Positions 8,792-27,738 of a stretch of DNA of 32,000 nucleotides are shown in pieces. Numbering within the stretch: the first letter of the stretch is position 1; every line of letters starts with the position of its first letter. Both the position numbers and the translations under genes were made by a program. Origin of the DNA: Pyrobaculum calidifontis JCM 11548 (lineage in GTDB: Archaea > Thermoproteota > Thermoprotei > Thermoproteales > Thermoproteaceae); NCBI RefSeq assembly GCF_000015805.1, contig NC_009073.1, forward strand, positions 60,001 through 92,000, written 5' to 3'. The notes beneath the pieces are model-generated. The model saw only the letters and a program-made list of their open reading frames with translations. It did no database searches and was not told the origin of the DNA.

Positions 8792-9589
8792 CTATTTTTT
8801 AAAAACACTACTTACAACGCGCCTCACCTCGCGCAAAGCCTCTTCACTCTCCTCGCCAGGCGCCGGCTCTGCTCCTCTGCCAGCGACGCCCGCCAAAAGG
8901 CTCCCCAACGCCGAGGCGAACACCTTAGGCGTAGAGGTACACTCTATAGATATGTAGAACTGCCGCCCCCTAAGCGCTTCCCCAAGCTTGTAGAAGAGGT
9001 ACTCGCCAGCGAAGAAGTGCCCCGTGGGGTCTTCCCTATGTATATCAAAGCCAAGGTGTATTGCCAAGGGTCCCTCCGCCTTTAGCACGTGGGATATGGC
9101 CAGCCAAAAGCTCCTGTCCCCGGCGCCAGGCGGCATGGGAATGGCCACTGCCTTGTGTCCACGCCTATGTATATACCTCTGAGGGGGGCCGTCGGCGCCG
9201 CCGTATATTAAATACAGCGGAAATTTATACTCCATATGCGCCTCCCACGTGCCGCGCGGAAAGTGGCCGTCTATAGACACAACAGCGGCGCCTAGCTTCC
9301 TCGCTATATAGACAACGGCGTTGAAGAAGTGGCCACCTCTAGCCGCGTGGGGCCCCGCCATCATTGTGCCACCTATGTAAAACACCGCCTGCCTCTTGCC
9401 CAAGGCGGCGTTAGCCACGGCAACGGCCAAGAGCGGGCGCTCGCCAGCCCTCTTGGCAGCCCGCAGAAAGATCTCGCTGTGCACAAGCAGTAAGTCCTCC
9501 CAGGCGCCCACCCCTTCCACAGCCTCCGCGCCCATTTCTCTCAACGCCTTGGCAGGCCACTCGTCGAATTTGACATGTGTAAGCAACAC
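8792..9589 (-). CDS. Divergent histone-deacetylase/AcuC-like (arginase-deacetylase fold) protein
   Basis: 265 aa. Has LLLVHSEIFL, GPHAARGGHFFNAV (compare GHHA..GFCxFNN), VVSIDGHFPRGT (compare DxDxHHGDG) and LGFDIHREDP (compare GxDxxxxDP). GTG start. Confidence 0.5.
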   Translation of the reverse strand: MLLTHVKFDEWPAKALREMGAEAVEGVGAWEDLLLVHSEIFLRAAKRAGERPLLAVAVANAALGKRQAVFYIGGTMMAGPHAARGGHFFNAVVYIARKLGAAVVSIDGHFPRGTWEAHMEYKFPLYLIYGGADGPPQRYIHRRGHKAVAIPMPPGAGDRSFWLAISHVLKAEGPLAIHLGFDIHREDPTGHFFAGEYLFYKLGEALRGRQFYISIECTSTPKVFASALGSLLAGVAGRGAEPAPGEESEEALREVRRVVSSVFKK

Positions 9590-10564
9590 GGCAACACTAC
9601 GCCAGCTATAAATAACTGCGACAACAAAGATAAATACCGCAGTGGTTATGGCCTCAATGCAGGGGTTCTAGAACTAGAGAAGAGGCTCTACGAACTGCTT
9701 AAAAAGCGGGCAAAGTACAACGTCCCGCCGCTCATCGACGGCCCCCTTGCCACAGTCATAGCTGCCGAGGTCGGCAAATTGCACAAGCCCACTGTGGCCT
9801 ACCTCGGCCCAGAGCGCTCATTCACGTGGGAGGCGGCAGTCGCGCTGTTTCCCCACGGCGTGTATAAACCGGCTAAAACCATCACCGACGTGTTTAAGGC
9901 CGTTGAGGCCGGCGACGCGTTGTACGGAGTTGTCCCATTTATAAACAGCCTAGAGGGGCCCGTGGGGGAGACCGTAGACGCCTTAGCCACCCACGACTTG
10001 AAGATTGTGGCAATGGGCGAGCTTAGGATTGTGCTCTGCTTGGCAAAGAAGGGCGTGCCGCGTGTTGTTTATACGCACCCCCACGCGGCGGCGCAGGCGC
10101 GCAGAGCGCTACAAGCCCTAGGCGCAGAGGTGGTCTACACCGCGTCGACCTCGGAGGCGGTTAGGGAGTTCGAGAAATGCGACAACTGCGCCGTCTTAGC
10201 TTCTCCAAAGGCGTTGGAGGGCGTGGAGAAGACCTGCGGCGTTGAAGACGCTGAGAGCTACACGAGGTTCGCAGTAGTTTCGCGAGAAGGCGGCGTGGGG
10301 GAGAGGGCGCTACTCATATTCGCAGTGCCAAACGTCCCCGGGGCGCTCCACAAGGCGCTGGGTCCCCTCGCGAGGCGCGGGATAAACATGACCCTGATCT
10401 ACTCCAGGCCCACGAAGCTCTCCCCCTGGGACTACTACTTCTTGGCGGAGGTGCAAAGCGGCGAGGGGCTGGAAGAGGCCTTGGAGGAGATGGGCCACTA
10501 CACCACAATGCTAAAAGTGGCGGGCAGATACAACATAGTCACAATACAGCCAACTCAGCCCTGA
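9575..10564 (+). CDS. pheA: Prephenate dehydratase with a C-terminal ACT domain
   Basis: Contains VAYLGPERSFTWEAA, VPFINSLEGPVGETVDAL and ESYTRFAVV. The ACT region is ALLIFAVPNVPGALHKALGPLARRGINMTLIYSRP. The start is uncertain: ATG 9575 overlaps the divergent gene, and an internal TTG just before VAYLGP is possible. Confidence 0.8.
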   Translation: MCKQHGNTTPAINNCDNKDKYRSGYGLNAGVLELEKRLYELLKKRAKYNVPPLIDGPLATVIAAEVGKLHKPTVAYLGPERSFTWEAAVALFPHGVYKPAKTITDVFKAVEAGDALYGVVPFINSLEGPVGETVDALATHDLKIVAMGELRIVLCLAKKGVPRVVYTHPHAAAQARRALQALGAEVVYTASTSEAVREFEKCDNCAVLASPKALEGVEKTCGVEDAESYTRFAVVSREGGVGERALLIFAVPNVPGALHKALGPLARRGINMTLIYSRPTKLSPWDYYFLAEVQSGEGLEEALEEMGHYTTMLKVAGRYNIVTIQPTQP

Positions 10565-11090
10565 CGCCTTCTAGCGCCTTCTCAACCTCCTCACTAAACT
10601 GCACCTTTTCCCTCAAGCGTTGCACATAGTCAACCACGGCTGATACAAGCTCTACCACTGCCCTCGCCGCCTCCTCCCTTGTGCGGTACTTGATCAACGC
10701 CATGTCTGGGTCTGGTCCGTGGTATTGGTAGTCGTGGAGATTTAGCGCCAAATTCGTCCACGCAGACACATCTCGGTACCCCAATTCTCTCAACATCTGC
10801 GAAAGCGGTATCATCTTCGTAGTGGGGACTCGGGGCACCGCCCTCTCCTCTAGCCACCTCCTCTCCTCTTCTGTCTTTGCCAAGGCCTTCAGCCGCTCTA
10901 GCTCAAGCTTGAGGAGGACCGCCAGCACAGTCCTCCACGCCTGGAAGGCCTTTCCAGCCGCGTTGCGAGTAAGGCCGCGTCTGAGGAAGTCAATGGCAAG
11001 CTTGGTCTCCACCAACGCTTCGAGTAGGCGGGCAGAGGCGTAGTCGGCGGAGGAGGGCTTTGGAAGAGGTCTCTCTATGGCTTCGTACAT
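10539..11090 (-). CDS. All-helical PaREP1-like protein (Pyrobaculum-type repeated family)
   Basis: 183 aa. The segment LRRGLTRNAAGKAFQAWRTVLAVLL resembles what I recall of the PaREP1/PaREP8 family. This assignment is from memory, not from a search. Confidence 0.45.
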   Translation of the reverse strand: MYEAIERPLPKPSSADYASARLLEALVETKLAIDFLRRGLTRNAAGKAFQAWRTVLAVLLKLELERLKALAKTEEERRWLEERAVPRVPTTKMIPLSQMLRELGYRDVSAWTNLALNLHDYQYHGPDPDMALIKYRTREEAARAVVELVSAVVDYVQRLREKVQFSEEVEKALEGVRAELAVL

Positions 11091-11123
11091 GGGGTTTATG
11101 GTCGGCTTTGTTTATGAGCTAAG

Positions 11124-11133
11124 TGTTATAAAG
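11124..11133 (+). promoter_or_regulatory. TATA box (TGTTATAAAG) for the AOR gene
   Basis: Centred about 23 nt upstream of ATG 11152. This supports the shorter start. Confidence 0.45.
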
Positions 11134-11151
11134 GGGGCCTCCCTCTTTTTC

Positions 11152-13044
11152 ATGTATGGTGTGGCTGGTGCCGTTGTATATATTGATCTCTCAACTGGGC
11201 GCGTTGAGAAGATAAAGTTGGGGGAGGAGGTTTATAAAAAGTTTTTGGGCGGTGTGGGGCTTGGCGCTTGGTTCCTCCTTTCTAGAATGGCGAAGGGCAC
11301 GGACCCCCTGGGCCCTGGCAATGTGCTTGGATTTGTCTCAGGCTTGTTGAATCTTTCCAACGTGCCTCTCGCAGGGAGGTTTATGGCGGTGGGCAAGTCG
11401 CCTCTCACCGGCGGCTGGGGAGACGCAAACGCTGGCGGGAGGTTTGGCCCCAAGCTTAAGGAGGCTGGGTTTGACGCAGTTTTCATTTGCGGCGTTTCTG
11501 AGAAGCCCGTCTACATACTTATCGAGAACGGCGAGGTGTACATAGAATCTGCGGCAGATCTGTGGGGGAAGACGACGAAGGAGACCGAGGACGAGCTTAG
11601 GCGGAGGCACAGGGGGGCGCAAGTGGTATCCATAGGCCCCGCCGGGGAGAAGCAACAGTTGGTGGCGGCTATTATAAACGAGTACGGTAGGGCTCTGGGG
11701 CGGTCGGGCCTTGGAGCAGTTATGGGGAGCAAGAGGCTTAAGGCCGTGGTAGCAGTTGGAGACAAGCGCGTCGAGGTCTACGACAGAGATCTTCTGAGAC
11801 AGAAAATTGTGGAAATAGTCCAGCTACAGAAGGGTCCCCGCGCCAGGGCGGCGGAAATTTGGCACAAGTATGGGACCTTATACACGCTGGAGCCCAGCAT
11901 ACTCTCCGGCGACACGCCTCTGTACAACTGGAGGGGGCTGGGCTACGAGGAGGTGAAAAGGCTGGCAGAGGTCTACAAAGCAGACTACTTCATTAAGGAC
12001 AATGTAAAGCCGTATGCCTGCGCCTCGTGTACTGTGGCATGCGGCGCGTTGATTAAAAGCCGCACCAAGTATGGAGAAGTGGAGGGCCACAGAGCTGAGT
12101 ACGAAACCGCCTCTCTCTTTGGCCCAGCGCTACTAAACCTAGACCGCGACTCCGTGGTGTATATAAACGAGCTCTGCAACCTCTACGGCCTTGACACCAT
12201 CTCCACGGCCAACGTAGTGGGCTTTGCCATGGAGCTCTACGAGAGGGGGGTATTGAGCGAGCGCGAAGTGGGCTTTCCACTGAAGTGGGGCGACGCCGAG
12301 GCGGTTATAAGGCTGGTGGAGCTCATTGGAAAAGGCGAGGGGATAGGCAGAGTCTTGGGCCAGGGGGTGAAAAAGGCCTGTGAAATAATTGGCAAAGGCG
12401 CGTGTGAGTATGCCATGCACGTCGGCGGCCAAGAGCTCCCGGCGCATCACGTGAAATATCTGCCGGGCCTAGCGGTGACGTATGTGGCAGACCCAACCCC
12501 GGCGAGGCACACAGCCGGCGGCGTACACTTCATGGGAGAAGGTGGCAGATCTACGTGGACACAGTTCGACTTTGGGATAAACTTTGGCAAAGTAGAAAAG
12601 TACGCCTACAAAGACAAGGGCAGAATAGCGGCTGTGTACGCAAAGGCGGCTCAGGTGGAAAACTCGCTGGGGTTCTGCGCATTTTCATCTCAAGTGGTAT
12701 TCCGCACGTTGCCCTACGTGGAGTTGATATATGCCTTCACCGGCCTCAAATTTACGCCGCAGGAGTTGCTAGAGGTGGGCCACAGAATACAGACAATGCG
12801 CAAGCTATTCAATATAAGAGAGGGCGTAAACCCCACCCAGTGGAAACTGCCAAAGAGGGCCCTGGAGTACCCCAAAGAGGGCCCACTCTCAGACGTAAAA
12901 ATGACGGAAGAAGACGTGGAGCTCATGAGGCGCGAATACTACGAGGAAATGGGGTGGGACCCGGCCACCGGCGCGCCGCGCAGAGCCACGCTGGAGAAAC
13001 TCGGCATACTAGACCTCGCAGAGGGCCTAGACCTCCCCCCGTAG
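11152..13044 (+). CDS. aor: Aldehyde:ferredoxin oxidoreductase family enzyme (tungstopterin, 4Fe-4S)
   Basis: From ORF 11077..13044, trimmed to MYGVAGAVVYIDLSTGRVEKIKL (630 aa). Has the typical AOR N-terminal domain (GGVGLGAWFL, GKSPLTGGWGDANAGGRFGPKLKEAGFDAVFI) and the C-terminal domains (ACASCTVACG, DTIS, LGFCAF). Confidence 0.9.
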   Translation: MYGVAGAVVYIDLSTGRVEKIKLGEEVYKKFLGGVGLGAWFLLSRMAKGTDPLGPGNVLGFVSGLLNLSNVPLAGRFMAVGKSPLTGGWGDANAGGRFGPKLKEAGFDAVFICGVSEKPVYILIENGEVYIESAADLWGKTTKETEDELRRRHRGAQVVSIGPAGEKQQLVAAIINEYGRALGRSGLGAVMGSKRLKAVVAVGDKRVEVYDRDLLRQKIVEIVQLQKGPRARAAEIWHKYGTLYTLEPSILSGDTPLYNWRGLGYEEVKRLAEVYKADYFIKDNVKPYACASCTVACGALIKSRTKYGEVEGHRAEYETASLFGPALLNLDRDSVVYINELCNLYGLDTISTANVVGFAMELYERGVLSEREVGFPLKWGDAEAVIRLVELIGKGEGIGRVLGQGVKKACEIIGKGACEYAMHVGGQELPAHHVKYLPGLAVTYVADPTPARHTAGGVHFMGEGGRSTWTQFDFGINFGKVEKYAYKDKGRIAAVYAKAAQVENSLGFCAFSSQVVFRTLPYVELIYAFTGLKFTPQELLEVGHRIQTMRKLFNIREGVNPTQWKLPKRALEYPKEGPLSDVKMTEEDVELMRREYYEEMGWDPATGAPRRATLEKLGILDLAEGLDLPP

Positions 13045-15153
13045 CCCCTCGGCCAGCATCTGCCTAGCCTGCTCAATCACAGACTCCGCCAGTTTTTCCC
13101 CAAAGCCCGGCAACGAGGCAATCTCTCTAACGGTAGCCCTGGCTATGTCCTCAAGCGTCCTGTAGCCAAAGTTGTAGAGCGTGCGGGCCCTGACGCGCCC
13201 CACCCCCCTGAGAGAGGTCACTAGGCCTAAGAGCTCCTCCCTCACCCCGTACACCACCCTCGCCGTGACCACCTCAAGCCTCTTCCCGTGCTCCTCGCGG
13301 CCCACGAGACGCGCAAGCTTGGCCGCGGCGTTGCCAAGCCACTGGAACAAATCCACGTACACCCTCAAATCGCCCGGAGCCACGTCGAACTTCTCATATA
13401 TCACGTCCTCGTCGACTTCCTCAATCCACGCCATGAGCATAGACGCGGTCCGGGCCAAGTCCTCAAACTCCTCGTCCTCCTCCACATCCAACGCCGCGAG
13501 GATTCCCTCTACCACACGCTTGTCCGCCCTGCCCCTCCTCACCCTGGGGAAGTCGGGGGCTGTCAAGACCACGTAGAGGTAGGCAGGCACGTTCCCCGCC
13601 CTCAGCGACTTGATCAGCCGTATGTAGCCGGCGGCCACCTCTGGATCTAGGTAAAGCCTAGCCACCTGTCTCCCAAGCTCCGTGGCATATACAAAGTCGC
13701 CGTCTCGCTCAAGGAAGCCCCACTCCACTAACTCCTCCACCACGCCGCCGATCTTAGACCTGAGGATAGACAACTTGAGCGAGGTCTTCATCTGCGCCGC
13801 GCCCAGGGTGTTGGAGAAGAAGTCCACAAGGTCGTCTAGAGACTTGGCGTAGCCCCCGCCCACGGCGCCCAGCACGTGGGCCCTGAGGTTGGGCTCAGCC
13901 AAGATGTGGGAGCGGACCCCCTCCACTTGCCCCCTCACATAGCGCTCCATTAGGTACTCCGCCTCCCCCTTGCTCCTCGCCACAAGCACAGCCTCGCCGT
14001 ATGGATCCAGGCCAGGCCTCCCCGCCCTCCCCGCCATCTGCCTATACTCAAGCACGGGGATCTCCTCCCGGCCAAGCGCTGGGTCAAAGCGCTCGTAGTC
14101 GGCGACCACCACACGCCTCGCCGGGAGGTTGACCCCGGCCGCCAGAGTCGTGGTAGACACCACCACCTTGAGCAAGCCCCTCCTAAACCCATCCTCCACA
14201 AGCCTCCTCACCTCTAGCTCAAGCCCCGCGTTGTGGAACGCCACCCCCCTCGCCACAAGGTCGGCGAGCTCTCTGCCAATGATCTTGCTAGAGGACGCCT
14301 TGAGGACCTCCTCGGCCAGCGCCTTGGCCCCCCGCGGCACAAGGCCGGCCGCCTCCATGGCCTTCGCCACGGCCTTGGCCAGTCTGACGGTGGAGCTCCT
14401 GCTGTTGGTGAAGACCAGGGCCTGGCCCCCGCCTGCCACCGCGTCCACAGCCAAGGCCACCTCCGCGTCCCCCGGCGCGTTCACGCGTTGCATGGAGCCG
14501 TCGGAGAAGCGGATCACCCCGCCGTGGTACACACCCTCTCTGAGGGGCACTGGCCGCCAGCTAGACTCCACAAGCCTAGCCCCAAGCCACGCCGCCACCT
14601 CCCCCGCGTTCCCCACAGTGGCGCTCAAGCCGATGAACTGGGTTTTTAGGCCGAGGTGCCTCAGCTTAGCCACAATAGACTCGAGGACGGGCCCCCTCCT
14701 CGGGTCCCCCAGGTAGTGAATCTCGTCCACCACCACGACGCCCACGAGCCCGAGCCAGTTCGGCCTATGGCGCAGGAGGCTGTCCAACTTCTCATACGTA
14801 ACCACCACCACGTCAAACTCGTGGAGCCGCCTGTCGTCCGAGTCAAAGTCGCCGGTAGACACCCCCACTTTCACAAGCCCCCTGTAGTAGGAGAAGTGGA
14901 CAAGCTTCTCATAGGCAAGAGCCTTGAGGGGCACAGCGTAGAGCGCCATGCGCCCCTCCAAGCCCGCCTTGACCGCCGCCACCTCGGCCAAAAGCGACTT
15001 CCCCGAGGCAGTCGCCGTACATAACAAGACGCTCCTCCCGTCAAAAATCCCGGCCCTCACCGCCTCCACCTGAGGCGGAAACAGCCGCCCCACCCCACGC
15101 TCCTTAAGCACGGCAATGAGCCTGGCGTCCAGAGGAAGCTCAGAGACCTCCAC
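13027..15153 (-). CDS. hel308: Hel308/Hjm (Ski2-like) DNA helicase
   Basis: Contains CTATASGKS (Walker A), VVVDEIHYLGD (DEIH), SATVGN and YRQMAGRAGRPG, plus a C-terminal HhH-like region LPGFGEKLAESV. I chose the GTG at 15153 (VEVSELPLDARL) because TTTTTATAGG on the minus strand (15167-15178) lies just upstream. ATG 15162 and ATG 15204 are alternatives. Confidence 0.9.
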   Translation of the reverse strand: MEVSELPLDARLIAVLKERGVGRLFPPQVEAVRAGIFDGRSVLLCTATASGKSLLAEVAAVKAGLEGRMALYAVPLKALAYEKLVHFSYYRGLVKVGVSTGDFDSDDRRLHEFDVVVVTYEKLDSLLRHRPNWLGLVGVVVVDEIHYLGDPRRGPVLESIVAKLRHLGLKTQFIGLSATVGNAGEVAAWLGARLVESSWRPVPLREGVYHGGVIRFSDGSMQRVNAPGDAEVALAVDAVAGGGQALVFTNSRSSTVRLAKAVAKAMEAAGLVPRGAKALAEEVLKASSSKIIGRELADLVARGVAFHNAGLELEVRRLVEDGFRRGLLKVVVSTTTLAAGVNLPARRVVVADYERFDPALGREEIPVLEYRQMAGRAGRPGLDPYGEAVLVARSKGEAEYLMERYVRGQVEGVRSHILAEPNLRAHVLGAVGGGYAKSLDDLVDFFSNTLGAAQMKTSLKLSILRSKIGGVVEELVEWGFLERDGDFVYATELGRQVARLYLDPEVAAGYIRLIKSLRAGNVPAYLYVVLTAPDFPRVRRGRADKRVVEGILAALDVEEDEEFEDLARTASMLMAWIEEVDEDVIYEKFDVAPGDLRVYVDLFQWLGNAAAKLARLVGREEHGKRLEVVTARVVYGVREELLGLVTSLRGVGRVRARTLYNFGYRTLEDIARATVREIASLPGFGEKLAESVIEQARQMLAEGLRGEV

Positions 15154-15206
15154 GCCACACATAACACCTATAAAAAGAAGTACAGTGCATACTGCAAGGC
15201 ACACCG

Positions 15207-15218
15207 AAAAACATTTTA
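15207..15218 (+). promoter_or_regulatory. TATA-like box (AAAAACATTTTA) for the five-gene surface operon
   Basis: Centred about 27 nt upstream of GTG 15240, in the 86-bp divergent gap shared with hel308. Confidence 0.4.
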
Positions 15219-15239
15219 GGAACTCGACATATAGGGCAT

Positions 15240-16571
15240 GTGGAGGCAGTGGAAGTAGTCCTAGTCTCGGGGATACTCATCGGCTTCATCCTATTCCTAT
15301 TCACCCTAACCCCCCAACAGACAGAGCTCTACGCAGTGGCCCAGCCAGCCCTCATGAACCTCGCCCAACAGGCGCTAGACCGGGCAATCCTCATGCAGGG
15401 CAACATCACCACGAGGCGCGCAGACGGCTGGACCATCGTCGACCTAGCGCTATCGGCCCAGAGGCCCCTCTACCAGCCCCAGATCGATTCGGCTAAGCTA
15501 GGCGCCCTCGCCGCGCCAGCGGCCCAAGGCCCCACATGCGTAATACGACAACAGAAGCTCGTCGAGGCTTCAGGGATATCCCAAGGAGTCTTAGTGGGCT
15601 ACGGGGTCTTAGCCCCACGCCAGTCCTACGCCTGCGACTACGAGGCAATACTGAAGAACTTCTTCGGCCCCGCCTGGGACAAGTACGACATGACCCTCGT
15701 GCTAAAGCCCCTGGTGAACCTCACCATATGCCCCAACTACCCCGTCGGCTCTGTCACAATAAGACGCAACGACCCCATGTGCGCCAAGGTGCCGTTGGGC
15801 AAGATTTGGGTGACCTTAAACGCCACTGGGACAGCCGTCAACGGAACTGTGGTGGTAACGGTAATCCACTGCCCAGTGGGCGGAGAGTGCCAGATAGCCA
15901 GCGCTGAGGGCTACTTCAAGTTCGACCCTAACTTGCGCCTGTACTACTACGACGTCACGGGCCTATTGGCGCAATATCTGCAAGACGTCCCCCAGGGCGC
16001 CGGGGTGGCGGCCTTTGCCCAGAAGGTGGACTACCCCAAGGCCTTCGACTTCTGGCTATTCAACGTCAGCAACAGGCCCCTGGTGTACGGCTTCTACACG
16101 CCGGACGGCCGCGTGTGGATAACCCACGACGCGACGGTTAGTTGCGGTTCGGGGAACACCCCCGCCTTGGGCATAAGGAGGCTGGACGCGTACACGGGAG
16201 CCGGCTTTACAAACCTAGCCCAAGACGCCGTGCTAGACCCGGGGCAGGGCCAGGGACAAGTGAAGGTGGACCAGTGTAGCAAGTGCGTAGGCAATGCCAG
16301 ATGCGCCGCGTGCTACGTAACGCCGCCCCCCGGCTCGCTCTTCATGGTGGTGTGGGTTGAGAGAAACAGCCAGGGGGGCAACGCGCCAGAGGGCACAATG
16401 GTGATTATACCCCTCGCCCCCACGCCGCCCAAGGCCCCCGTCAGAGTGGACACGTGGCGCTGCCGGGGCCTCCAAAGCCCGCCGCAGACCCAGAGCGCAG
16501 TGGCCACTAGGGTAGTGGACAGCCAAGCCGCCACATACGCGGCGGAGCTCACTCTGTACAAGTGGCCATGA
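15240..16571 (+). CDS. Operon gene A: secreted or anchored glycoprotein with a pilin-like N-terminal helix carrying Glu5. Function unknown.
   Basis: 443 aa with a GTG start. The N-terminus is (M)EAVEVVLVSGILIGFILFLFTL. There are five N-x-S/T sequons (NIT, NLT, NAT, NGT, NVS) and several Cys. I recognise no domain. Confidence 0.8.
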   Translation: MEAVEVVLVSGILIGFILFLFTLTPQQTELYAVAQPALMNLAQQALDRAILMQGNITTRRADGWTIVDLALSAQRPLYQPQIDSAKLGALAAPAAQGPTCVIRQQKLVEASGISQGVLVGYGVLAPRQSYACDYEAILKNFFGPAWDKYDMTLVLKPLVNLTICPNYPVGSVTIRRNDPMCAKVPLGKIWVTLNATGTAVNGTVVVTVIHCPVGGECQIASAEGYFKFDPNLRLYYYDVTGLLAQYLQDVPQGAGVAAFAQKVDYPKAFDFWLFNVSNRPLVYGFYTPDGRVWITHDATVSCGSGNTPALGIRRLDAYTGAGFTNLAQDAVLDPGQGQGQVKVDQCSKCVGNARCAACYVTPPPGSLFMVVWVERNSQGGNAPEGTMVIIPLAPTPPKAPVRVDTWRCRGLQSPPQTQSAVATRVVDSQAATYAAELTLYKWP

Positions 16572-17008
16572 AGTGGGTAATAGAGCTGGGCCTCTCGGCA
16601 ATGGTCGTGGGCCTTGTGTTCTACGTAGTATCCGCTGCGGCGCCGGCCCCAGCGTACATAGCCGCGGAGCGGGAGGTCACAGCCAACGCCTACTTCATAC
16701 TCCTCAGGCTGACCGCAGACCCCCACTTCATGAGCGCCCTGGAGAGGGCCGTGTGCCAAAACGACACGAAGGCGGTGGCCGCCATGTTGAACGCCACAAT
16801 CCCCGTGCGGTACTACTACAACTTCACGGTGTACCTAGACGACGAGAGGCCGCCCTCCTGCCTCGCGTGCGCCAAGTGGTCCCAGAGGCTTGCCACCGCG
16901 TCCAGGCCACGAGGCCTCCCGCAGAGCGGCGCCAGCGTGGCCGCCGTGTCGGCGCTCCTCAGCGACGGCACGAGGGTAAGGCTGACTCTCTCGCTGGATA
17001 GGCCATGA
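16568..17008 (+). CDS. Operon gene B: small pilin-like protein
   Basis: I chose ATG 16568 because it overlaps the stop of gene A as ATGA (16568-16571), like the other junctions. GTG 16562 is the alternative. The N-terminus is MKWVIELGLSAMVVGLVFYVV. Three sequons (NDT, NAT, NFT). Confidence 0.75.
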   Translation: MKWVIELGLSAMVVGLVFYVVSAAAPAPAYIAAEREVTANAYFILLRLTADPHFMSALERAVCQNDTKAVAAMLNATIPVRYYYNFTVYLDDERPPSCLACAKWSQRLATASRPRGLPQSGASVAAVSALLSDGTRVRLTLSLDRP

Positions 17009-20000
17009 GGGGCCAGCTGATACTCCTATCAGCCTTCATCGCCGCCGTGGCCGTGGCGGCGATAATGACGGCGCAAATCGCCCTACAGATGGGCTCCTAC
17101 TCCGCGGGGGCGAGGACTGGGTACGGCATATACGCAAAGGCGTGGCCCGAGGTGGTGGATCTCGCCGACTCCCACGTACTCCAAGCCACGGCAAAGGCCT
17201 CCGCCCAGCTCTCAACCGCAGCAACCACCACAGGGCTCTACGCGTGGCTAAGCGACCTTCCATACTACGCAGCGAAGTGGTACACCAACAGCTCGCTCTC
17301 GCTCCTAAAAACCGCGCTGTTGCCCATAGGGGCCCAGCTGGACTTCAAATACCGAATATTCTACACAGGCTTCAACGGCACCCTGGGCCCCTACCCACAG
17401 GCAGTGGAATACTCGCGGTGGAACCTAGACCCCGTTAGGAGCGGCTTTCTCACAATACCCGGCGCAACGCTCTACAGGCTTGTGGTCACCTGGCAAAGCG
17501 ACGACTACGGCGGCTACTACGTCGTCACATACGGAGCCCACGTCTCTGAGCCAGGCGCCGCTGGCGAGGTATACAACGTAGCCCTAGCAGACCTCTTGAG
17601 AAAGCTAGGCGAATTGGAAGAAGAGAAAATCAAGTCCAGCCTCTTCGCCTTCCTAGTAGACAGCCAGACGTGCAAACTCTACCAGCTACCCTGGTGGGCC
17701 GAGATAAAGAACTGCCCCCTCTGCCTACTACACGTCAGACTGCCCTCCTCTTCCTCCGACGAGGTGTCCGGCTTTAAGCTGGAGAAGGGCAAGGCGGTGG
17801 AGGTGCTCCTCGTCTTCATTCCAAATCTGCAAGGCGACGAGATACCGGTGCTGAAGTCTGGCCCATGTGCGAGCGGCCAGCCTATGCTGTCAGACATCGT
17901 GAAGGTGAACAAGGCCGTGAACAATGAGCCAAAGGCTGCGTTCGCACCGCAAGTAGGATACGAGCAGTATCCGTGGGGCGGCCGTCCAGCGGGGTACAGC
18001 GTTTCATACTACTGGGGCGCCGACGAGATAGCCTCATGGGGCAAAAGCGTAGTTAATACGCAAGGCTGTTATCATTCGCCAACGGGCGGAGTAATTAGAA
18101 ATGAGTATGGTGTTACGGTGGAAGACGTCCCAGACTTCCGCCCCGTTGCACGAGTCTACGCCAGGTACGCCGTTGGCACCACGAATTGGGCCTTTAATGT
18201 ATATTACAAATTGAACACTCCACAAGAAGATGATGATGATAATCTGAGAAATCTTGGCTGGCGTGGCTTCACAGTGGAGGCGCTGGTCAAGCCGCTTAAA
18301 GGCATAATAAGGCCCGCCAGGCTTGACCTCTACTATGCCTGGAACACCAACCCACCCCCACCCAGCAGACACCCCATATGCGCCTACCTTCTGGCAGTGC
18401 AGGCCGTTGTGCCAGCCATCGTGTGGACAAACTGGTACGCGGGGAACGGCGTGTGGAACGGGAGGACTTGGGATGATGCGGGTTCGCTAACTTATGGCAC
18501 ATCCTGGTACCTCTTCTCCATATCGGCGGACACCTCCAGAGTGGTATACAGCGTATACAGCTACAACACGACAAGGCCCCTCATACGGCTGGCCACTAAG
18601 ACGACCACCCACTCGTTTGGCGGCGACTGGAGGTTCTACATAGTGCTGGGAAGCGCCATAGTGGACAATCCCGCCTCCGGTACGCCTGAGGAGGCGTACT
18701 ACGCCTATGTGAGAGTTAGGCCCTGGGTAGACCCGCCCCCCTCCGTGTCCCTCGCGCCCGTGGACAAGACCCCCCTCGCCAGGCCGGGCAGAGTAGACGT
18801 GGTAGCACTGAGCGCAACCAAGGTGGAGGCAAACATAAACGCCAGCGGCAGTGTGGGTCTTGCCAACGTAGAGCGGCTCAACATTTCGCGCACAATAGGC
18901 CTAAGCGTCAAGGTGGTTGAGTGGAGCGTCGATGGGAGCAACCCCAACCAGGACAGATACCACTACAGAGTTCGGGTGGAGTCCACTATCCCCCGCGGCG
19001 CCGTGGCGGCCCAGTTCACCCTCTTCTACAGCCTGGGCTCCACCTACGTCAACACCACGTGCGTCGACAACGGCTTGTGCACAGCCACACTGGCTGAGTA
19101 CCTCGGCTACTCCGGCGGCAGGGATGTCGCCGAGTGGGAGGTGGAGTTCACCGTGCCCAAGAGGGCGAGCCACGCCATATTTGTCAATGTCTTCGGGTCT
19201 AAGGTGGCTGTCTCCACGGCCCAGCCCAAGCTCTACGCGCTGGGAGGCGGCACGACGTGGTACCTCATAAACGAGGGAGACGGCACCGGCGTCTTGTACA
19301 TACCGTGGAAGAAGTCTGGCCAGCAGGTTTGCACGCGCTGGCTGGCCGACTACAGCCCCAAGGACCCGAGGTTCATAGGCGTTTACGACGTTAAGTACAA
19401 GTGTCCCAACTGCGGCCCGTGCGAGAGCTGGACAGTCGTCCTCGTACCGCCTGGCTCGCTCGTGAGGCTAGACTTCACAGACTCGGTGTCACTCAGCGTC
19501 TTGAACACGTTTAGAGCACAGTGGCAACCGCCGATTTTGCCGACACCGCCGCTACCAAGCTGTCCTAACCCTATATACGTCAGATTCTACATACCCGGCA
19601 ACGCCAGTAAGGGTTACTATGTTATTTACGTACCGCCAAGCGATACGCAGGGCCCGCTTCTCACGTACGGCGGCGTAGATAGGCGTAGTGCTTATGCATA
19701 TTTAGGCGGTAGCTGGAAGGGGGTGAATCTCTACAGAGATGGGCCAAGCGGCGTTGGCGGATATTGGGTCAGACTTGAGGGGGATTTGACTAACAAAGCC
19801 GTCTTAGCGGTCTTCTGCCAAGGAGGGACATTTACGCCTCCTCAAGACCTCTTTAGGCCTCCCCAACAACCCTCCAGCTACTTCTGGACGCTCACTGGCC
19901 CTGTGGAAGTCACCTTACAACAAGCATCGCTGAATGAGTTCAAAGACGGGTTCACCGTGGTGTTTGGCCACTACAGGAGTGTGCCGAGTTGGGTGGCTCT

Positions 20001-20445
20001 GTACAACGGAACTTGGTCGGACTCAATGCTATCGTGTGCGTCTAACAGGAGAATGGTGGGCATACAGCAAATTGGCAGTCCAAAGTGGTGGTGGGACTAC
20101 GACGGCTTCTGCTACGACAGGCACATATGGGAGCTCTACGGCGCCGTGAGTGGCGAGCGCAACTTCACAATATCGGTGGCCAGGTCCGTCGTGTTGTACC
20201 AGATCTTCACGAGCGGCGCGTGGGGGTCGGGGCAGAACCCGTGGCTTAGGTCTTACCCCAACGTCGTGCCGTCCGACGGGCCGTCAGACCTCAGAAACAG
20301 GGCCATGACGGCGTTTCAGAGGGCGCGCGCCGGGGTCGCCGGCGGGCAGAGATACAGCGTTGCGGTTATACCCTTCACGTGGCCTCGGCCGTTCTTCTAC
20401 GTGGACTCTGGCACAGCGGTTAGGGGCCCGTTTGAGACGACATGA
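17005..20445 (+). CDS. Operon gene C: giant (1146 aa) extracellular protein with a class-III (prepilin-type) signal. Function unknown.
   Basis: The N-terminus is MRG|QLILLSAFIAAVAVAAIM, a basic residue and Gly followed by a hydrophobic helix. There are nine N-x-S/T sequons and it is rich in Trp, Tyr and Gly. It has Pro-rich linkers (VDPPPSVSLAP, PPILPTPPLPSCPNP) and a Cys cluster KCPNCGPCESW. ATGA overlaps occur at both ends. Confidence 0.9.
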   Translation: MRGQLILLSAFIAAVAVAAIMTAQIALQMGSYSAGARTGYGIYAKAWPEVVDLADSHVLQATAKASAQLSTAATTTGLYAWLSDLPYYAAKWYTNSSLSLLKTALLPIGAQLDFKYRIFYTGFNGTLGPYPQAVEYSRWNLDPVRSGFLTIPGATLYRLVVTWQSDDYGGYYVVTYGAHVSEPGAAGEVYNVALADLLRKLGELEEEKIKSSLFAFLVDSQTCKLYQLPWWAEIKNCPLCLLHVRLPSSSSDEVSGFKLEKGKAVEVLLVFIPNLQGDEIPVLKSGPCASGQPMLSDIVKVNKAVNNEPKAAFAPQVGYEQYPWGGRPAGYSVSYYWGADEIASWGKSVVNTQGCYHSPTGGVIRNEYGVTVEDVPDFRPVARVYARYAVGTTNWAFNVYYKLNTPQEDDDDNLRNLGWRGFTVEALVKPLKGIIRPARLDLYYAWNTNPPPPSRHPICAYLLAVQAVVPAIVWTNWYAGNGVWNGRTWDDAGSLTYGTSWYLFSISADTSRVVYSVYSYNTTRPLIRLATKTTTHSFGGDWRFYIVLGSAIVDNPASGTPEEAYYAYVRVRPWVDPPPSVSLAPVDKTPLARPGRVDVVALSATKVEANINASGSVGLANVERLNISRTIGLSVKVVEWSVDGSNPNQDRYHYRVRVESTIPRGAVAAQFTLFYSLGSTYVNTTCVDNGLCTATLAEYLGYSGGRDVAEWEVEFTVPKRASHAIFVNVFGSKVAVSTAQPKLYALGGGTTWYLINEGDGTGVLYIPWKKSGQQVCTRWLADYSPKDPRFIGVYDVKYKCPNCGPCESWTVVLVPPGSLVRLDFTDSVSLSVLNTFRAQWQPPILPTPPLPSCPNPIYVRFYIPGNASKGYYVIYVPPSDTQGPLLTYGGVDRRSAYAYLGGSWKGVNLYRDGPSGVGGYWVRLEGDLTNKAVLAVFCQGGTFTPPQDLFRPPQQPSSYFWTLTGPVEVTLQQASLNEFKDGFTVVFGHYRSVPSWVALYNGTWSDSMLSCASNRRMVGIQQIGSPKWWWDYDGFCYDRHIWELYGAVSGERNFTISVARSVVLYQIFTSGAWGSGQNPWLRSYPNVVPSDGPSDLRNRAMTAFQRARAGVAGGQRYSVAVIPFTWPRPFFYVDSGTAVRGPFETT

Positions 20446-21128
20446 CGTCGCTTGAGGTTCTGCTTCTAACGGCAATTTCGCTGATCATAATGTTCGCGGC
20501 TCTGCCGTACGTCATTTCAACGCTGTACGCCTCTATGGCGCCTCTGGAGTATAGAAATGCGGTGGCCTACGTGCTAGCCTTTGCCGACGGGCTTGAGGCA
20601 GACTTCGGGATGGCGGGGTCGCGGAAGTACTTCCCCCTGCCCAACTTCGTCTACGGGAGCTTCGGCGGCGTCAACCGCACTTACGCCATCGCAATCCTCT
20701 GCGGCGGCACGCCGATTAGCGGGTACAGCAGATGGAACGTGGTCGAGGTGTGGTACAACTCCACCTACCTAGTGGACGGGCCGCGCCTCTACAGAGGCGT
20801 CGACGGGGGCTTGATAGCGCTCGTGGGGGACACCATGGTGGCCGTCAACGCCACTCCGCCGGGAAGGCTGAAGCTATACTTCAGACCCTTCGTGGTAAAT
20901 GGCACGGAGGAAGTGTACATCTACTTCGTTTCGTCCAGGTTCTACGCCAGGGGGCGCTACTACCTGACGTATGAGGTAGGCGGGACGCTGGCGGTGGAGT
21001 CGTTACCGTGCAACAGCCGGCTTGAGATAAGGGTGAGCGACGGCGTGCGGCAGTGGAGCTATACGACGCCCAATGTGGTGAAGCGTGTGTACTTTGTAAA
21101 CCAGACGGTGTGGATTGAGCTGAGATGA
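20442..21128 (+). CDS. Operon gene D: pilin-like protein with Glu5
   Basis: 228 aa. The N-terminus is MTSLEVLLLTAISLIIMFAALPYV. Five sequons (NRT, NST, NAT, NGT, NQT). ATGA overlap with gene C at 20442-20445. Confidence 0.8.
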   Translation: MTSLEVLLLTAISLIIMFAALPYVISTLYASMAPLEYRNAVAYVLAFADGLEADFGMAGSRKYFPLPNFVYGSFGGVNRTYAIAILCGGTPISGYSRWNVVEVWYNSTYLVDGPRLYRGVDGGLIALVGDTMVAVNATPPGRLKLYFRPFVVNGTEEVYIYFVSSRFYARGRYYLTYEVGGTLAVESLPCNSRLEIRVSDGVRQWSYTTPNVVKRVYFVNQTVWIELR

Positions 21129-21688
21129 GGGGGTCTATCTCCACGTCGGCCTTGATCCTCTTTGTGGCATTTGCGGCGACTGTGGCCGTGTTGGCCTACA
21201 TTGTGGACATGAGGGCGCAGTGGGTGTTGGAGCGGGACGTGGAGTCGCTGGCCCAGTCGGCGGCGGACTTCGCCGCGTCTCAGATTAGGGACTCGCTTGC
21301 CGCGGCGAGTATACCCGGCGTAGTGGAGCTGAACCGCTCTCTGTTGGTGCCGCGGGACTTCTACGGCTTTGACACTGCGGGCGTCTCCATATGCGTGGGG
21401 AACAGAGGCGGCTTCCTCTATGTAAACGTCACGGCGTCGGGGACGAGGGGGCGGGGCTCGGCGACGGCGAAGGCCACGGCATGGCTGTACAATGTGACAA
21501 AGTGGGCCATAGACCACGGCCGGGTGGTGTACCTCGTGGGCCAGTACGGCCCCTGCGGCAGTCCCCCCTCCACCTGCTTCGCCACAGTGATCGTTGGCGC
21601 GAGGAAGGTTGCTGTGGTCAACTTGACGCGGCCTGGCTGCTCGGCAATGCTTGTGAAGTCCGGCGTGTGGATAATTCCGCGCGGCTAG
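21125..21688 (+). CDS. Operon gene E: pilin-like protein with a class-III signal (TadG-like N-terminus)
   Basis: 187 aa. The N-terminus is MRG|SISTSALILFVAFAATVAVLAYIVD. Four sequons (NRS, NVT, NVT, NLT). ATGA overlap with gene D at 21125-21128. Confidence 0.8.
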   Translation: MRGSISTSALILFVAFAATVAVLAYIVDMRAQWVLERDVESLAQSAADFAASQIRDSLAAASIPGVVELNRSLLVPRDFYGFDTAGVSICVGNRGGFLYVNVTASGTRGRGSATAKATAWLYNVTKWAIDHGRVVYLVGQYGPCGSPPSTCFATVIVGARKVAVVNLTRPGCSAMLVKSGVWIIPRG

Positions 21689-26213: not shown

Positions 26214-26456
26214 GTATCCCTCTCTCGCCAGTTTCCCAAGCGCATAGGCCACAGCCCCCTCGTCTGCGCCCACCGCGGCCGCCGCCTCCTCCGCGGACAG
26301 AGGGCCCTTGGCCAAGGCGGCGAGCAACTTGGCCTCGAGCTCCGTCTCCTCTCTCAGAGAGGCCTTCACCGGCTTGAAGAGCCTAAAGGCTAGGTACAGC
26401 ACCGCCGCCACGACGGCCGCGAGCAGTAGGACAATCCACACGTGGCGCAAAGCCAT
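26163..26456 (-). CDS. Small membrane-anchored winged-helix (MarR/ArsR-like) protein
   Basis: 97 aa. It has an N-terminal TM helix VWIVLLLAAVVAAVLYLAF, then LLAALAKGPLSAEEAAAAVGADEGAVAYALGKLAREGYVEAVGEGRYAL, which looks like a helix-turn-helix plus wing. Confidence 0.6.
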   Translation of the reverse strand: MALRHVWIVLLLAAVVAAVLYLAFRLFKPVKASLREETELEAKLLAALAKGPLSAEEAAAAVGADEGAVAYALGKLAREGYVEAVGEGRYALRHGVC

Positions 26457-26478
26457 ATATTTATATCCATTTCAAGGA

Positions 26479-27738
26479 GTGCTCCGCCTCCTACCCCCAG
26501 CGGCGGTTCTCGCGGCCGGCCTCCTCATAAGGGCATACTTTGCCCCCTTCACCGTGGGGAGCGACGTGGTGCAGTTCGCCGGATTTGCAGACAGCGTGCA
26601 CAGACACGGACTCTGCTTCTACAAATACGCGGGGGGAGAAAACGCGGAGGCAGAGGGGTGGGCGTACCCGTGGCCATTCCCCTACGGCCCGCTGGCCGTT
26701 GCCCTCTTAGCCGTTGCCAGGCTCCTCGCGCCCGGCGCAGTGGAGAAGGTGGGCGAGTGGGTGTACGCGCCCCCGGACTGGATAGTCGCCTCCAAGGCGT
26801 TGTTCATAGCCTTCGACACCGCGGTTGCAGTCCTCATCTACTCTAACGGGGCGGGGTGGCCCACTTGGCGGAGGACAGCCGCCATGGCCCTCTACTACTT
26901 AAACCCCGCCGTGATCTACACCTCGGCCATATACGGCATGTTGGACCCACTGCCAGCCGCGCTCCTCATCGCCGCTCTGAGGCTGAGGGGCGGCTTCTGG
27001 GCGGGGGCCCTTCTCGGCTTAGCCGCCGCCACGAAGCTAAATGCGGCTCCGGCTGCGCTTTTCGCCGCACTCGCGTCGCCGTCGCTGAGGCTCGCCGCGG
27101 GGTTTGCGGCAGGGGCGCTCGTCCCCGTAATGCCCTTCGAGGCGGCGTGCCCCGGTAGCCTCTTGGCGTGGGTCCACGCGGCGCTGTCGGTGGCGTCGCC
27201 CGGCTACAACCCCCCTGTGGTGTACAGCTTCAATGGGGTGACTACGCTGGCCACGTATCTGCATGAGAAGACCGGCGGAGACTACTTATGGGCCATCCGT
27301 GCGTGGTGGGTCGCGGCCGCGGCGGCCTACGCCCCCCTGCTCCTCGTAGCGAGACGGGCCGGTCCGCTGGCCTCTGCCTACTTGGCGTACTTAGCCTACA
27401 CGGCCACCTACTGGCGTGTCAACTACCAATACTTCCTCCTCCTGGCGGGCCTCGCCGCGTTGCACATAGCCGCGCCCGGCGTCAGCAGAGCAGAGAAGGC
27501 GGTTTCCCTGGCGCACTTGGCGGCCGTCGCCCTTTGGCCCTTCCTCTACCCCGTCAGCTGGTGGGCCCGCGTCCATGTGAAAGAGCCCAACGAGGCGGTG
27601 GCAACGGCGCTAGACGCTGTGTCGCTAAAGTTGTTGGACCCCGAGGTATACGTGGCGTACTCCCTCGCGTTAACGGCCCTGGCGTATGTGGCGCTTGCGG
27701 CGCACTACCGCCGGTGGTTTAAGCGTATAAACCCCTAA
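26479..27738 (+). CDS. Polytopic membrane protein, GT-C-fold glycosyltransferase-like (DUF2029/PMT_2-like)
   Basis: From ORF 26308..27738, trimmed to GTG 26479 (VLRLLPPAAVLAAGLLIRAY) because the upstream part is antisense to the wHTH gene. The TATA-like ATATATTTATAT (26455-26466) sits just upstream. There are about 10 or more hydrophobic segments, with an early conserved loop FTVGSDVVQFAGFADS. Confidence 0.6.
   Translation: MLRLLPPAAVLAAGLLIRAYFAPFTVGSDVVQFAGFADSVHRHGLCFYKYAGGENAEAEGWAYPWPFPYGPLAVALLAVARLLAPGAVEKVGEWVYAPPDWIVASKALFIAFDTAVAVLIYSNGAGWPTWRRTAAMALYYLNPAVIYTSAIYGMLDPLPAALLIAALRLRGGFWAGALLGLAAATKLNAAPAALFAALASPSLRLAAGFAAGALVPVMPFEAACPGSLLAWVHAALSVASPGYNPPVVYSFNGVTTLATYLHEKTGGDYLWAIRAWWVAAAAAYAPLLLVARRAGPLASAYLAYLAYTATYWRVNYQYFLLLAGLAALHIAAPGVSRAEKAVSLAHLAAVALWPFLYPVSWWARVHVKEPNEAVATALDAVSLKLLDPEVYVAYSLALTALAYVALAAHYRRWFKRINP

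Follow-up and report, generated by a model that had tools for sequence, protein, structure and literature searches.

The stretch of DNA considered here comprises 32,000 nucleotides of the genome of Pyrobaculum calidifontis JCM 11548 (NC_009073.1, positions 60,001 to 92,000) and is called the window throughout. Between hel308 and mcm it carries a block of five consecutive genes, A to E, whose products begin with hydrophobic, pilin-like helices. Positions refer to the window unless they are preceded by a locus number (L001 and so on), in which case they refer to that locus. The five genes lie as follows.

15240 to 16571, plus strand: gene A, GTG start, 443 amino acids
16568 to 17008, plus strand: gene B, 146 amino acids, ATGA overlaps at its 5' and 3' ends
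17005 to 20445, plus strand: gene C, 1146 amino acids
20442 to 21128, plus strand: gene D, 228 amino acids
21125 to 21688, plus strand: gene E, 187 amino acids

All four junctions between these genes consist of ATGA (GCCATGAAGT, GCCATGAGGG, GACATGACGT and GAGATGAGGG), and comparison of gene coordinates reveals the same 4-nucleotide overlaps at orthologous loci. Gene B has an alternative GTG start at 16562; its conserved start is the ATG. Every protein has one strongly hydrophobic segment, situated at the extreme N-terminus (Kyte-Doolittle peaks of 2.1 to 2.7 across A to E), and C has an additional weak hydrophobic segment (residues 456 to 476) that its structure model puts in a beta region. 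N-glycosylation sequons predicted from the sequence number 26 (5 in A, 3 in B, 9 in C, 5 in D and 4 in E). This corresponds to 1.21 per 100 amino acids and is about 11 times the density of cytoplasmic neighbours (0.11 per 100 amino acids, or 4 in the 3586 amino acids of seven cytoplasmic proteins from the same window). Cysteines total 37, with 12 in A and 16 in C. The GC content of the five genes (0.57 to 0.65) matches that of the remainder of the window, where the other open reading frames (ORFs) encode housekeeping proteins. A first-pass annotation, made from the letters alone, had described five plus-strand ORFs with their positions, lengths and N-termini, one N-terminal hydrophobic helix in each product, ATGA at every junction, 26 sequons, hel308 and mcm as flanks and a host-like GC content; positions, lengths and sequon count proved exact, and the rest is borne out by the sequence.

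A separate observation concerns gene A. A cysteine cluster of the form C-x2-C-x5-C-A-A-C (window 16275 to 16320, residues 346 to 358) is invariant across Pyrobaculum. In an extracellular protein it could be either a disulfide knot or a metal site.

The block is conserved as a unit. A locus scan, with one genome per species, returned 12 loci, and the order of A to E was then checked by tblastn. The order A-B-C-D-E is kept in about 15 loci of Pyrobaculum and Thermoproteus (L001 to L013, L015, L016 and L019), that is, in every locus of sufficient length, and B is present wherever the block is. Several of these loci are referred to repeatedly.

L004: Pyrobaculum oguniense TE7 (Pogu_2354-2358)
L005: Pyrobaculum sp. 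WP30
L013: Pyrobaculum neutrophilum V24Sta
L015: Thermoproteus metagenome-assembled genome (MAG), 27-42% identity
L016: metagenome contig

The flanks of the block (mcm, hel308, sufBD) are shuffled between loci. Since order and overlaps are kept while the flanks differ, the block is a selected unit and not a chance run of ORFs. Synteny among related genomes, which the first-pass annotation had singled out as a test of its proposal, therefore speaks for it in both genera. In another MAG (CALJAK010000012; L002:3113-5708 and 9565-14403), B, D and E appear frame-split or truncated, as do the associated genes p900 and pilA2 described next; either the assembly is faulty at these points or the module is decaying in this lineage.

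The genes that accompany the block elsewhere point to a type IV pilus. The gene pilA at L007:3089-3529 (minus strand) encodes a protein that matches the pilin chain 6W8U_A of Pyrobaculum arsenaticum (E 1.6e-17), with an identical mature N-terminus, MTSLEIA. Directly after it follows pilA2, which encodes a PilA paralogue of about 133 amino acids (hhalign probability 98%). The third associated gene, p900, encodes a secreted protein of about 850 to 920 amino acids with a Sec-type signal, beta-propeller signatures and a C-terminal transmembrane anchor. In P. neutrophilum, in WP30 and in L008 the genes pilA-pilA2-p900-A-B-C-D-E are contiguous. The trio of pilA, pilA2 and p900 is divergent from A and directly adjacent to it in L007; in L001 and L003 a distance of 3-4 kb separates it from A. 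In L012, where the contig is cut, p900 is directly upstream of A, and in P. oguniense it is 4.9 kb away.

One locus links the block to assembly machinery as well. In the Thermoproteus locus L015, 1 kb downstream of E, we find a platform protein of 524 amino acids with about eight transmembrane segments, which is UpsF-like (E 5.4e-10) and also BasF-like. It overlaps a T2SSE ATPase of 495 amino acids (Pfam E 5e-27; Archaeoglobus fulgidus GspE, 2OAP, E 1e-39; FlaI E 1e-31), which is followed by a soluble protein of 72 amino acids and then by a further membrane protein with at least two transmembrane segments. There is no pilA nearby in L015. Co-occurrence with pilus genes, another check that had been proposed for this operon, is thus found with pilA in many loci, and with a type IV pilus ATPase and platform protein in one.

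The N-termini provide the most telling comparison. The pilin N-terminal motif is of the QxSxExxxL type, with serine at +3 and glutamate at +5 (Pfam PF04021 description). We looked for short basic leaders with [KR]-[GA] at their end, directly before about 20 or more hydrophobic residues (a slash marks the expected cleavage site below); C and E have such a leader, and A, B and D in the window start at +1. C begins MRG/QLILL, a class-III-type leader. All of 13 compared sequences have MRGQ, and in a set of 22 its conservation is at least 90%; P. oguniense C has a longer, basic leader of 11 residues, MSSPYKRGPRG/Q. The C helix has no acidic residue at all, and C is the sole member of the set of which this is true. 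E begins MRG/SISTSALILF, likewise class-III-type. Its orthologues have MRG followed by S, V or A (for example MRG/VVSTS), MRG/ITAIE in Thermoproteus, with Glu5 after cleavage, or the leaderless MRSLEV, also with Glu5, in loci of the P. neutrophilum/WP30 type (L005 to L009 and L013). Glu5 of E is accordingly present in two of three clades, the window's own clade being the third.

The three proteins that start at +1 are related to this pattern in different ways. A begins MEAVEVVLV in the window (Glu2, Glu5); its orthologues begin MRG/LES[IV]EL (L005, L007, L013), MAKRLRG/VAVSEAVE (P0033) or MQSIEL. B begins MKWVIELGLS, with Glu6, and M[KR]W[VL][IL]EL is found in every locus. D begins MTSLEVLLL and has the MTSLE of the mature PilA N-terminus (MTSLEV in D, MTSLEIA in PilA). 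Pyrobaculum D proteins start with MTSLEV or MQSLEL and have no leader, and in L005 none is possible because a stop codon lies three codons 5' of the ATG; the Thermoproteus orthologue has a full leader, MSSRRALRG/LEALE. Neither clade shows any variation at M1, S3, L4, E5 and L9 of D, and S3, E5 and L9 fit the class III motif. In an hhalign comparison with the PilA family, the first 39 residues of D align with 36% identity over 39 amino acids (probability 85%, E 6.7e-6), and the UniRef name of the P. oguniense D orthologue reads "Archaeal flagellin N-terminal...".

PilA orthologues have leaders of the same kind: MKPKIKG/MTSLE, MPTKLKG/MTSLE, MARG/MTSLE and MRG/LTSME. As the PilA ORF of L001 permits at most seven residues before the glycine, an "MRG" leader of three to four residues is a genuine class III leader in this genus. 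The class III leaders that the first-pass annotation had assigned to C and E agree with this, since their RG/Q and RG/S match the PilA leaders MRG/LTSME and MARG/MTSLE. It had also noted a glutamate at position 5 or 6 of leaderless A, B and D, which is right; its comparison with bacterial type IV pilins and TadE-type pseudopilins is unneeded, because Glu5 of A and D has its counterpart in the local archaeal PilA (MTSLE). Counted from the cleavage site, or from Met1 in leaderless proteins, a glutamate lies at or beside +5 in all members except C in general and E in the window's clade. Orthologues of A, D and E switch between a [KR]G/ leader and none, and the register of a processed pilin is kept with or without it. 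This fits conserved pilin-type helices and not generic signal anchors.

Synteny, linkage to pilA and leaders all suggest that A to E, the products of one translationally coupled operon, form a minor-pilin and adhesin accessory module of a Thermoproteales type IV pilus, most likely the PilA filament (arCOG03739; 6W8U), built by an ATPase and platform protein of the 4E class encoded elsewhere in this genome. We favour this reading with somewhat more confidence than doubt. The same evidence supports the core of the first-pass proposal, namely that the complex primes or tips a filament assembled by machinery from another part of the genome.

It is rather improbable, in our judgement, that the five products are envelope or pseudo-periplasmic glycoproteins on ordinary uncleaved signal anchors, for example associated with the surface layer (S-layer) together with p900, and have no part in a type IV filament. 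This would account for the leaderless starts of A, B and D, for the window being devoid of type IV pilus machinery and for a structure model of D that has no pilin fold match (see below). The resemblance of p900 to a family annotated as S-layer protein would also fit. It does not explain, however, why S3/E5 and RG/Q stand at fixed distances from the N-terminus across genera, with leaders that come and go around an unchanged +1, nor the genomic linkage to pilA, a T2SSE ATPase and an UpsF-like platform protein. The archaeal flagellin N-terminal domain that UniRef gives the D orthologue likewise speaks against signal anchors.

Family searches leave the five proteins without a name. Pfam, NCBIfam and PHROGs gave no significant match for A to E, and within Pfam and NCBIfam no profile of the bacterial pilin/pseudopilin, TadE or PilY1 type matched at E<=1, nor did the PF04021 hidden Markov model. 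The only matches, weak and confined to the N-terminal helix, were DUF7261 for C (E 0.011) and Pfam Arch_flagellin for E (E 0.31). Profiles of A, C and D matched nothing among PDB sequences. A search of 5.8 billion sequences returned 26 clusters for C, all "hypothetical protein" of Pyrobaculum or Thermoproteaceae, 18 for A and 17 for D. An exhaustive search of 1.84 billion representatives with the A profile gave 22 matches, confined to Thermoproteales (Pyrobaculum, Thermoproteus, Vulcanisaeta and Thermocladium).

Structures of C and D were predicted with AlphaFold2. The model of D (predicted local distance difference test, pLDDT, 84.6; predicted TM-score, pTM, 0.73) is based on an alignment of 16 sequences of the closer clade only, and consists of a 51-residue helix (3-53) followed by an all-beta domain, which in the model is the lollipop layout of a pilin. 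The model of C (pLDDT 75.7, pTM 0.72) has an N-terminal helix at 2-33 (low confidence), two helices within 47-108 and about 1000 amino acids of beta structure. Against the PDB, Foldseek relates it to ERGIC-53, legume lectins, laminin LG domains and the lectin wings of sialidases, with probability about 1 and TM-scores (TMt) of 0.4-0.52 over about 270 columns; against BFVD it finds concanavalin A (ConA)-like/LamG viral adhesin-type proteins from phages and archaeal viruses. The ConA/LamG jelly rolls of the model make C look like a modular pilin with lectin-type modules, a prediction of moderate strength. The first-pass annotation had recognised no adhesin domain in any of the five proteins, which the model of C contradicts. 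No profile or fold search, the latter with Foldseek for C and D, put A to E in a non-pilus family.

The viral relatives of the C fold raise the question whether the block is a virus-derived or mobile cassette, encoding for example the receptor-binding proteins of an integrated archaeal virus. The model of C does resemble the LamG/ConA-like TPX of TTV1, a structural protein of SPV2 and a PFV1 protein; the genomic context of the block differs between genomes, and PaREP1 repeat-family genes are nearby. We nevertheless consider this origin highly improbable. A to E have no PHROG match, no integrase, capsid or other viral gene is adjacent, the window has no tRNA gene, and the GC content is that of the host. 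The block has diverged along with its host genera (27-80% identity), and the likeness in fold is that of a generic jelly roll common to many adhesins.

A published class of pili offers a home for the module. Type IV pilus systems of Thermoproteales are very diverse (Makarova et al. 2016, PMC4858521), and besides an ATPase and TadC, loci of the 4E class encode another membrane protein and a small protein of the cytoplasm (PMC4858521). The gene set of L015, with its 8-transmembrane protein, ATPase, small soluble protein and membrane protein, agrees with this description. Vulcanisaeta and Caldivirga have ATPase-less loci with arCOG05475, which has been called a signature of the system (PMC4858521). 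In Table S4, a Caldivirga locus reads arCOG05475 (462 amino acids), 10501 (698), 10502 (532), 10503 (256) and 10504 (185), all subclade_4E, and a P. oguniense protein of 142 amino acids with a class III signal is arCOG03739 (PMC4858521). A recent preprint places subsystem 4E in Pyrobaculum and Vulcanisaeta, links it to arCOG03739 and arCOG03740 and describes its machinery genes and pilin genes as lying in two loci far apart (bioRxiv 10.64898/2026.04.22.720090).

Gene A provides a homologous link to this class. Its profile matches ADN50684 of Vulcanisaeta distributa (501 amino acids) with E 1.5e-8 and, over full length, an hhalign probability of 96%. ADN50684 is encoded by the first gene of a six-gene locus, which has a counterpart in Thermocladium.

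L014:10001-17632 (CP002100): V. distributa six-gene locus, 501-728-597-249-280-190 amino acids
L017:5465-12918: six-gene locus of a Thermocladium MAG with the same layout, about 500-700-590-245-270-180 amino acids

Five of the six V. distributa N-termini look like class III signals (KG/Q, RG/Q, RG/Q, RG/L, HG/Q), and the last gene, of 190 amino acids, is leaderless. This six-gene variant stands alone, without an ATPase, and the Vulcanisaeta locus has the layout listed for the Caldivirga subclade_4E locus. An hhalign comparison of B, C, D and E with the Vulcanisaeta genes gave weak colinear hints (D with the 280-amino-acid product, 26%; B with the 597-amino-acid product, 37%), which we do not count as evidence. 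A to E fit as the pilin and adhesin half of a split 4E system. Another family, arCOG09299 ("surface protein with class III signal, 2 genomes"), was rejected as a match because it is tied to the Halobacteria-specific pilin family arCOG09301.

Another possibility is that A to E build a self-contained short surface structure away from PilA pili, such as a pseudopilus or bindosome-like stalk. It would be made by one of four type IV pilus-type ATPase/platform pairs and would display the lectin-like C, for instance to capture glycans or to provide an anchor to the S-layer. We regard this as unlikely, though it has several points to commend it: the block occurs without a nearby pilA in the window, L015 and L016; the Thermoproteales subclade 4D has an ATPase/membrane pair without assigned pilins (PMC4858521); the Sulfolobus bindosome is a precedent for proteins with class III signals other than pilus subunits; and a set of five genes coupled this tightly might suffice for a small assembly of its own. 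However, no member is small and PilA-like enough for a major subunit of the abundant type, D copies the PilA N-terminus exactly, and in at least seven loci, among them L005, L007, L008 and L013, pilA and pilA2 are directly adjacent, pointing to the PilA filament. Moreover, A to E contain no substrate-binding-protein domain by Pfam or NCBIfam, and no ABC transporter is a neighbour in the window. The latter two features also separate A to E from the Sulfolobales bindosome proteins, which have a periplasmic-binding domain and an adjacent ABC transporter.

Several points weigh against the reading that A to E are accessory subunits of the PilA pilus. Filament membership of the five proteins is a prediction from their sequences. 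The window encodes no T2SSE ATPase, T2SSF platform protein or A24 peptidase, as the first-pass annotation had correctly recorded. No pilA was found in the window, nor in the 740 bp upstream of p900 in two further contigs of the same organism (L019 and L020), nor in the DNA region examined of P. oguniense. P. arsenaticum assembles PilA pili, and yet no named homologue from this species is among the matches for A, C and D; its absence is not proven, but the module may for this reason be optional or dispensable for pilus assembly. By definition a prepilin has a leader, and A, B and D lack one. In B the leader is missing from all orthologues as well and the glutamate is at position 6; B is the weakest member of the pilin-like set. 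Foldseek found no pilin or archaellin for the D model in the PDB (best E 0.06), which leaves its fold-level pilin membership unproven. The lectin assignment of C comes with TM-scores of 0.4-0.5 and with a model that is built from 22 closely related sequences and has pLDDT below 55 in the N-terminal 45 residues; the PDB profile search gave no match at the sequence level. Finally, A to E are assigned to 4E by layout and by one homologous gene, the arCOG identity of A and of the 501-amino-acid V. distributa protein being itself inferred.

If A to E nevertheless are accessory subunits of the PilA pilus, we suggest the following course of events. Each protein would be inserted via its N-terminal hydrophobic helix, with a glycosylated, disulfide-rich body outside, judging by sequons and cysteines. 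The class III signal peptidase would remove the three-residue MRG leader from C and E. A, B and D would be translated already "mature", with the initiator methionine in the +1 position of a processed pilin, as comparison with orthologues indicates; made in this form, they would need no peptidase. The five helices would then pack into a small, low-copy hetero-oligomer, which would either serve as a primer for the growing filament or come to lie at its distal tip. The outermost subunit and distal adhesin would be C, the largest member and the only one whose helix contains no acidic residue; bacterial GspK and PilX-type caps serve as the analogy. Its ConA/LamG-like domains, if the predicted fold is right, would bind glycans on surfaces, other cells or the S-layer and so confer adhesive specificity.

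In a more far-reaching form, which we put forward only tentatively, A to E would correspond to the bacterial minor-pilin/PilY1 priming-and-tip complex but would have evolved independently in archaea; three subunits would bypass the prepilin peptidase through a start at +1, and the lectin pilin C, devoid of Glu5, would cap the filament and set its adhesion target. C might then also be where pilus-binding viruses such as PFV2 in fact make contact.

Known systems resemble the module in part. The closest are the published 4E pilin genes (PMC4858521; bioRxiv 10.64898/2026.04.22.720090), which are computational predictions. Like A to E, they occur in the same archaeal order, comprise several secreted pilin-like proteins per operon, often without ATPase or TadC, are linked to major pilins of the PilA type (arCOG03739) and have separate machinery and pilin loci. 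The Vulcanisaeta type differs in having six genes, mostly with leaders, of which only the counterpart of A is detectably homologous, whereas the Pyrobaculum/Thermoproteus type has five, mostly leaderless, including members of 146 and of 1100-1200 amino acids. The P. arsenaticum PilA pilus (6W8U; Wang et al. 2020, PMC7347861) shares with C and E a short R-G leader on its pilin. PilA, however, has 142 amino acids, compared with 146-1146 in A to E, which are not PilA homologues past the first ~40 residues. The report on that pilus names no minor pilins or operon partners (PMC7347861). Among more distant archaea, the Epd pilus of Methanococcus maripaludis is likewise a type IV pilus that needs several minor pilins from one transcription unit (EpdA-C and others), together with an adhesin-like protein and a galactose-binding protein with a class III signal. 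It differs from A to E in being euryarchaeal, in having its own peptidase in the cluster and in showing no homology.

Bacterial tip and priming complexes of low-abundance pilin-like proteins consist of GspH-I-J-K in type II secretion systems, and of FimU-PilV-W-X with PilY1 in type IVa pili; GspK lacks Glu5, and PilY1 has a beta-propeller. By analogy, A to E are a co-encoded set of pilin-like proteins with a large subunit devoid of Glu5 (GspK there, C here) and a big adhesin attached, and p900 may take the place of PilY1 as beta-propeller partner. The globular parts of the bacterial and archaeal proteins are unrelated, with no similarity in sequence or profile, and the archaeal leaders have zero to three residues. 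Streptococcus sanguinis PilC (2023, PMC9934059) resembles the predicted architecture of C: it combines a class 3 signal and a pilin helix with a grafted concanavalin-A-like lectin module, and has been modelled in a tip-located complex with other minor pilins for adhesion to glycans (PMC9934059). It is bacterial and unrelated in sequence, whereas C has about 1100 amino acids and several beta domains, and its glycan binding is predicted from the fold.

The structures solved for archaeal type IV pili are those of homopolymers of the major pilin only. For the priming, the tip and the binding specificity of such pili, the operon supplies a concrete set of five candidate proteins beside the gene of a structurally solved pilin. 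It would account for the pilin genes that the split 4E system is said to have at a distance, and it offers a functional home for five families of "hypothetical protein" not covered by any Pfam or NCBIfam model. Its predictions are specific: C should be at the pilus tip and bind glycans, C and E should be cleaved after MRG, and A, B and D should be unprocessed. Leaders have come and gone repeatedly around a fixed +1 register, which suggests that a simple shift of the start codon can free a pilin-like subunit from the peptidase; if so, this would be a new twist on the biogenesis of type IV filaments. The degree of novelty is lower than the first-pass annotation implied. Minor-pilin and adhesin sets of type IV filaments are known, and a locus of this kind in Thermoproteales has been predicted computationally (Makarova et al. 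2016; 2026 preprint). New here are the particular module of five families and its position next to a pilin of solved structure, together with the subunits that are "pre-matured" for want of a leader and the giant lectin-like pilin.

The remaining observations concern neighbouring genes. The paralogue pilA2 was located at four loci.

L005:4026-4427: pilA2
L007:2680-3078: pilA2
L013:6964-7365: pilA2
L001:2273-2674: pilA2

Its products have no leader (MSSLEV.., MESIQ.., MKSLQ..) and a conserved cysteine at the C-terminal end. To judge by these starts, pilA2 apparently encodes a further peptidase-independent pilin.

The other companion of the block lies partly within the window.

30197 to 32000, minus strand: C-terminal 600 codons of p900, 47.5% identical to the L005 protein p919 by tblastn, 8.5 kb downstream of E

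The first-pass annotation had correctly seen no assembly machinery nearby; p900, a module partner of about 900 amino acids, does lie inside the window. The full gene of 860 amino acids is present in L019 (10971-13553) and in L020. PQQ_2 of Pfam is above threshold in the P. oguniense orthologue, with weaker EML/ACSF4/WD40 matches elsewhere. We regard p900 as an associated gene that travels with the module and pilA, outside the operon; its product could be a PilY1-like partner of the pilus or a gate for it in the S-layer.

We considered whether pilA and pilA2 lie just past the end of the window. This was rejected: in L019 and L020, the 740 bp upstream of p900 contain a PaREP1-like remnant and no pilin, so that the major pilin of this lineage must be encoded elsewhere. 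An intact PaREP1-family gene is located in the window at 10539-11090 (minus strand), and a stop-interrupted copy at L019:13554-14292, upstream of p900. The interrupted copy occupies the place that pilA2 and pilA take in other genomes, and this may mean that pilin genes have been lost from the site or moved away from it.

Between the operon and p900 (26308-27738, plus strand) lies a gene for a glycosyltransferase of the GT87 family (DUF2029-like) with multiple transmembrane segments, in the same position in L019 and L020. Glycosylation of the sequon-rich A to E by this enzyme is possible. As for the pilus machinery of other species, four clade-4 ATPases each are encoded in the genomes of P. oguniense and P. 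neutrophilum, away from the block (PMC4858521).

Upstream of the operon lies a divergent region.

15163 to 15239, no strand: intergenic region between hel308 and gene A, read from the sequence, probable promoter region

Candidate TATA elements, to judge by their A+T-rich composition, are CCTATAAAAAG and ACATTTTAGG; scans for bacterial-type sigma-70 promoters and terminators are not applicable to archaeal DNA. The longest hel308 ORF opens with a hydrophobic extension, MCLAVCTVLLFIGV (15162-15204, minus strand), that is not conserved in orthologues. Its first ~14-17 codons are unconserved, and the tblastn match begins at residue 18, so the true start of hel308 is probably an internal methionine near 15162. 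Such a start would widen the divergent promoter region shared with gene A. Lastly, many long antisense or alternative-frame ORFs (60-197 amino acids) overlap real genes on both strands between 13000 and 24000; given the high GC content and the few stop codons, these are an artefact and not genes.

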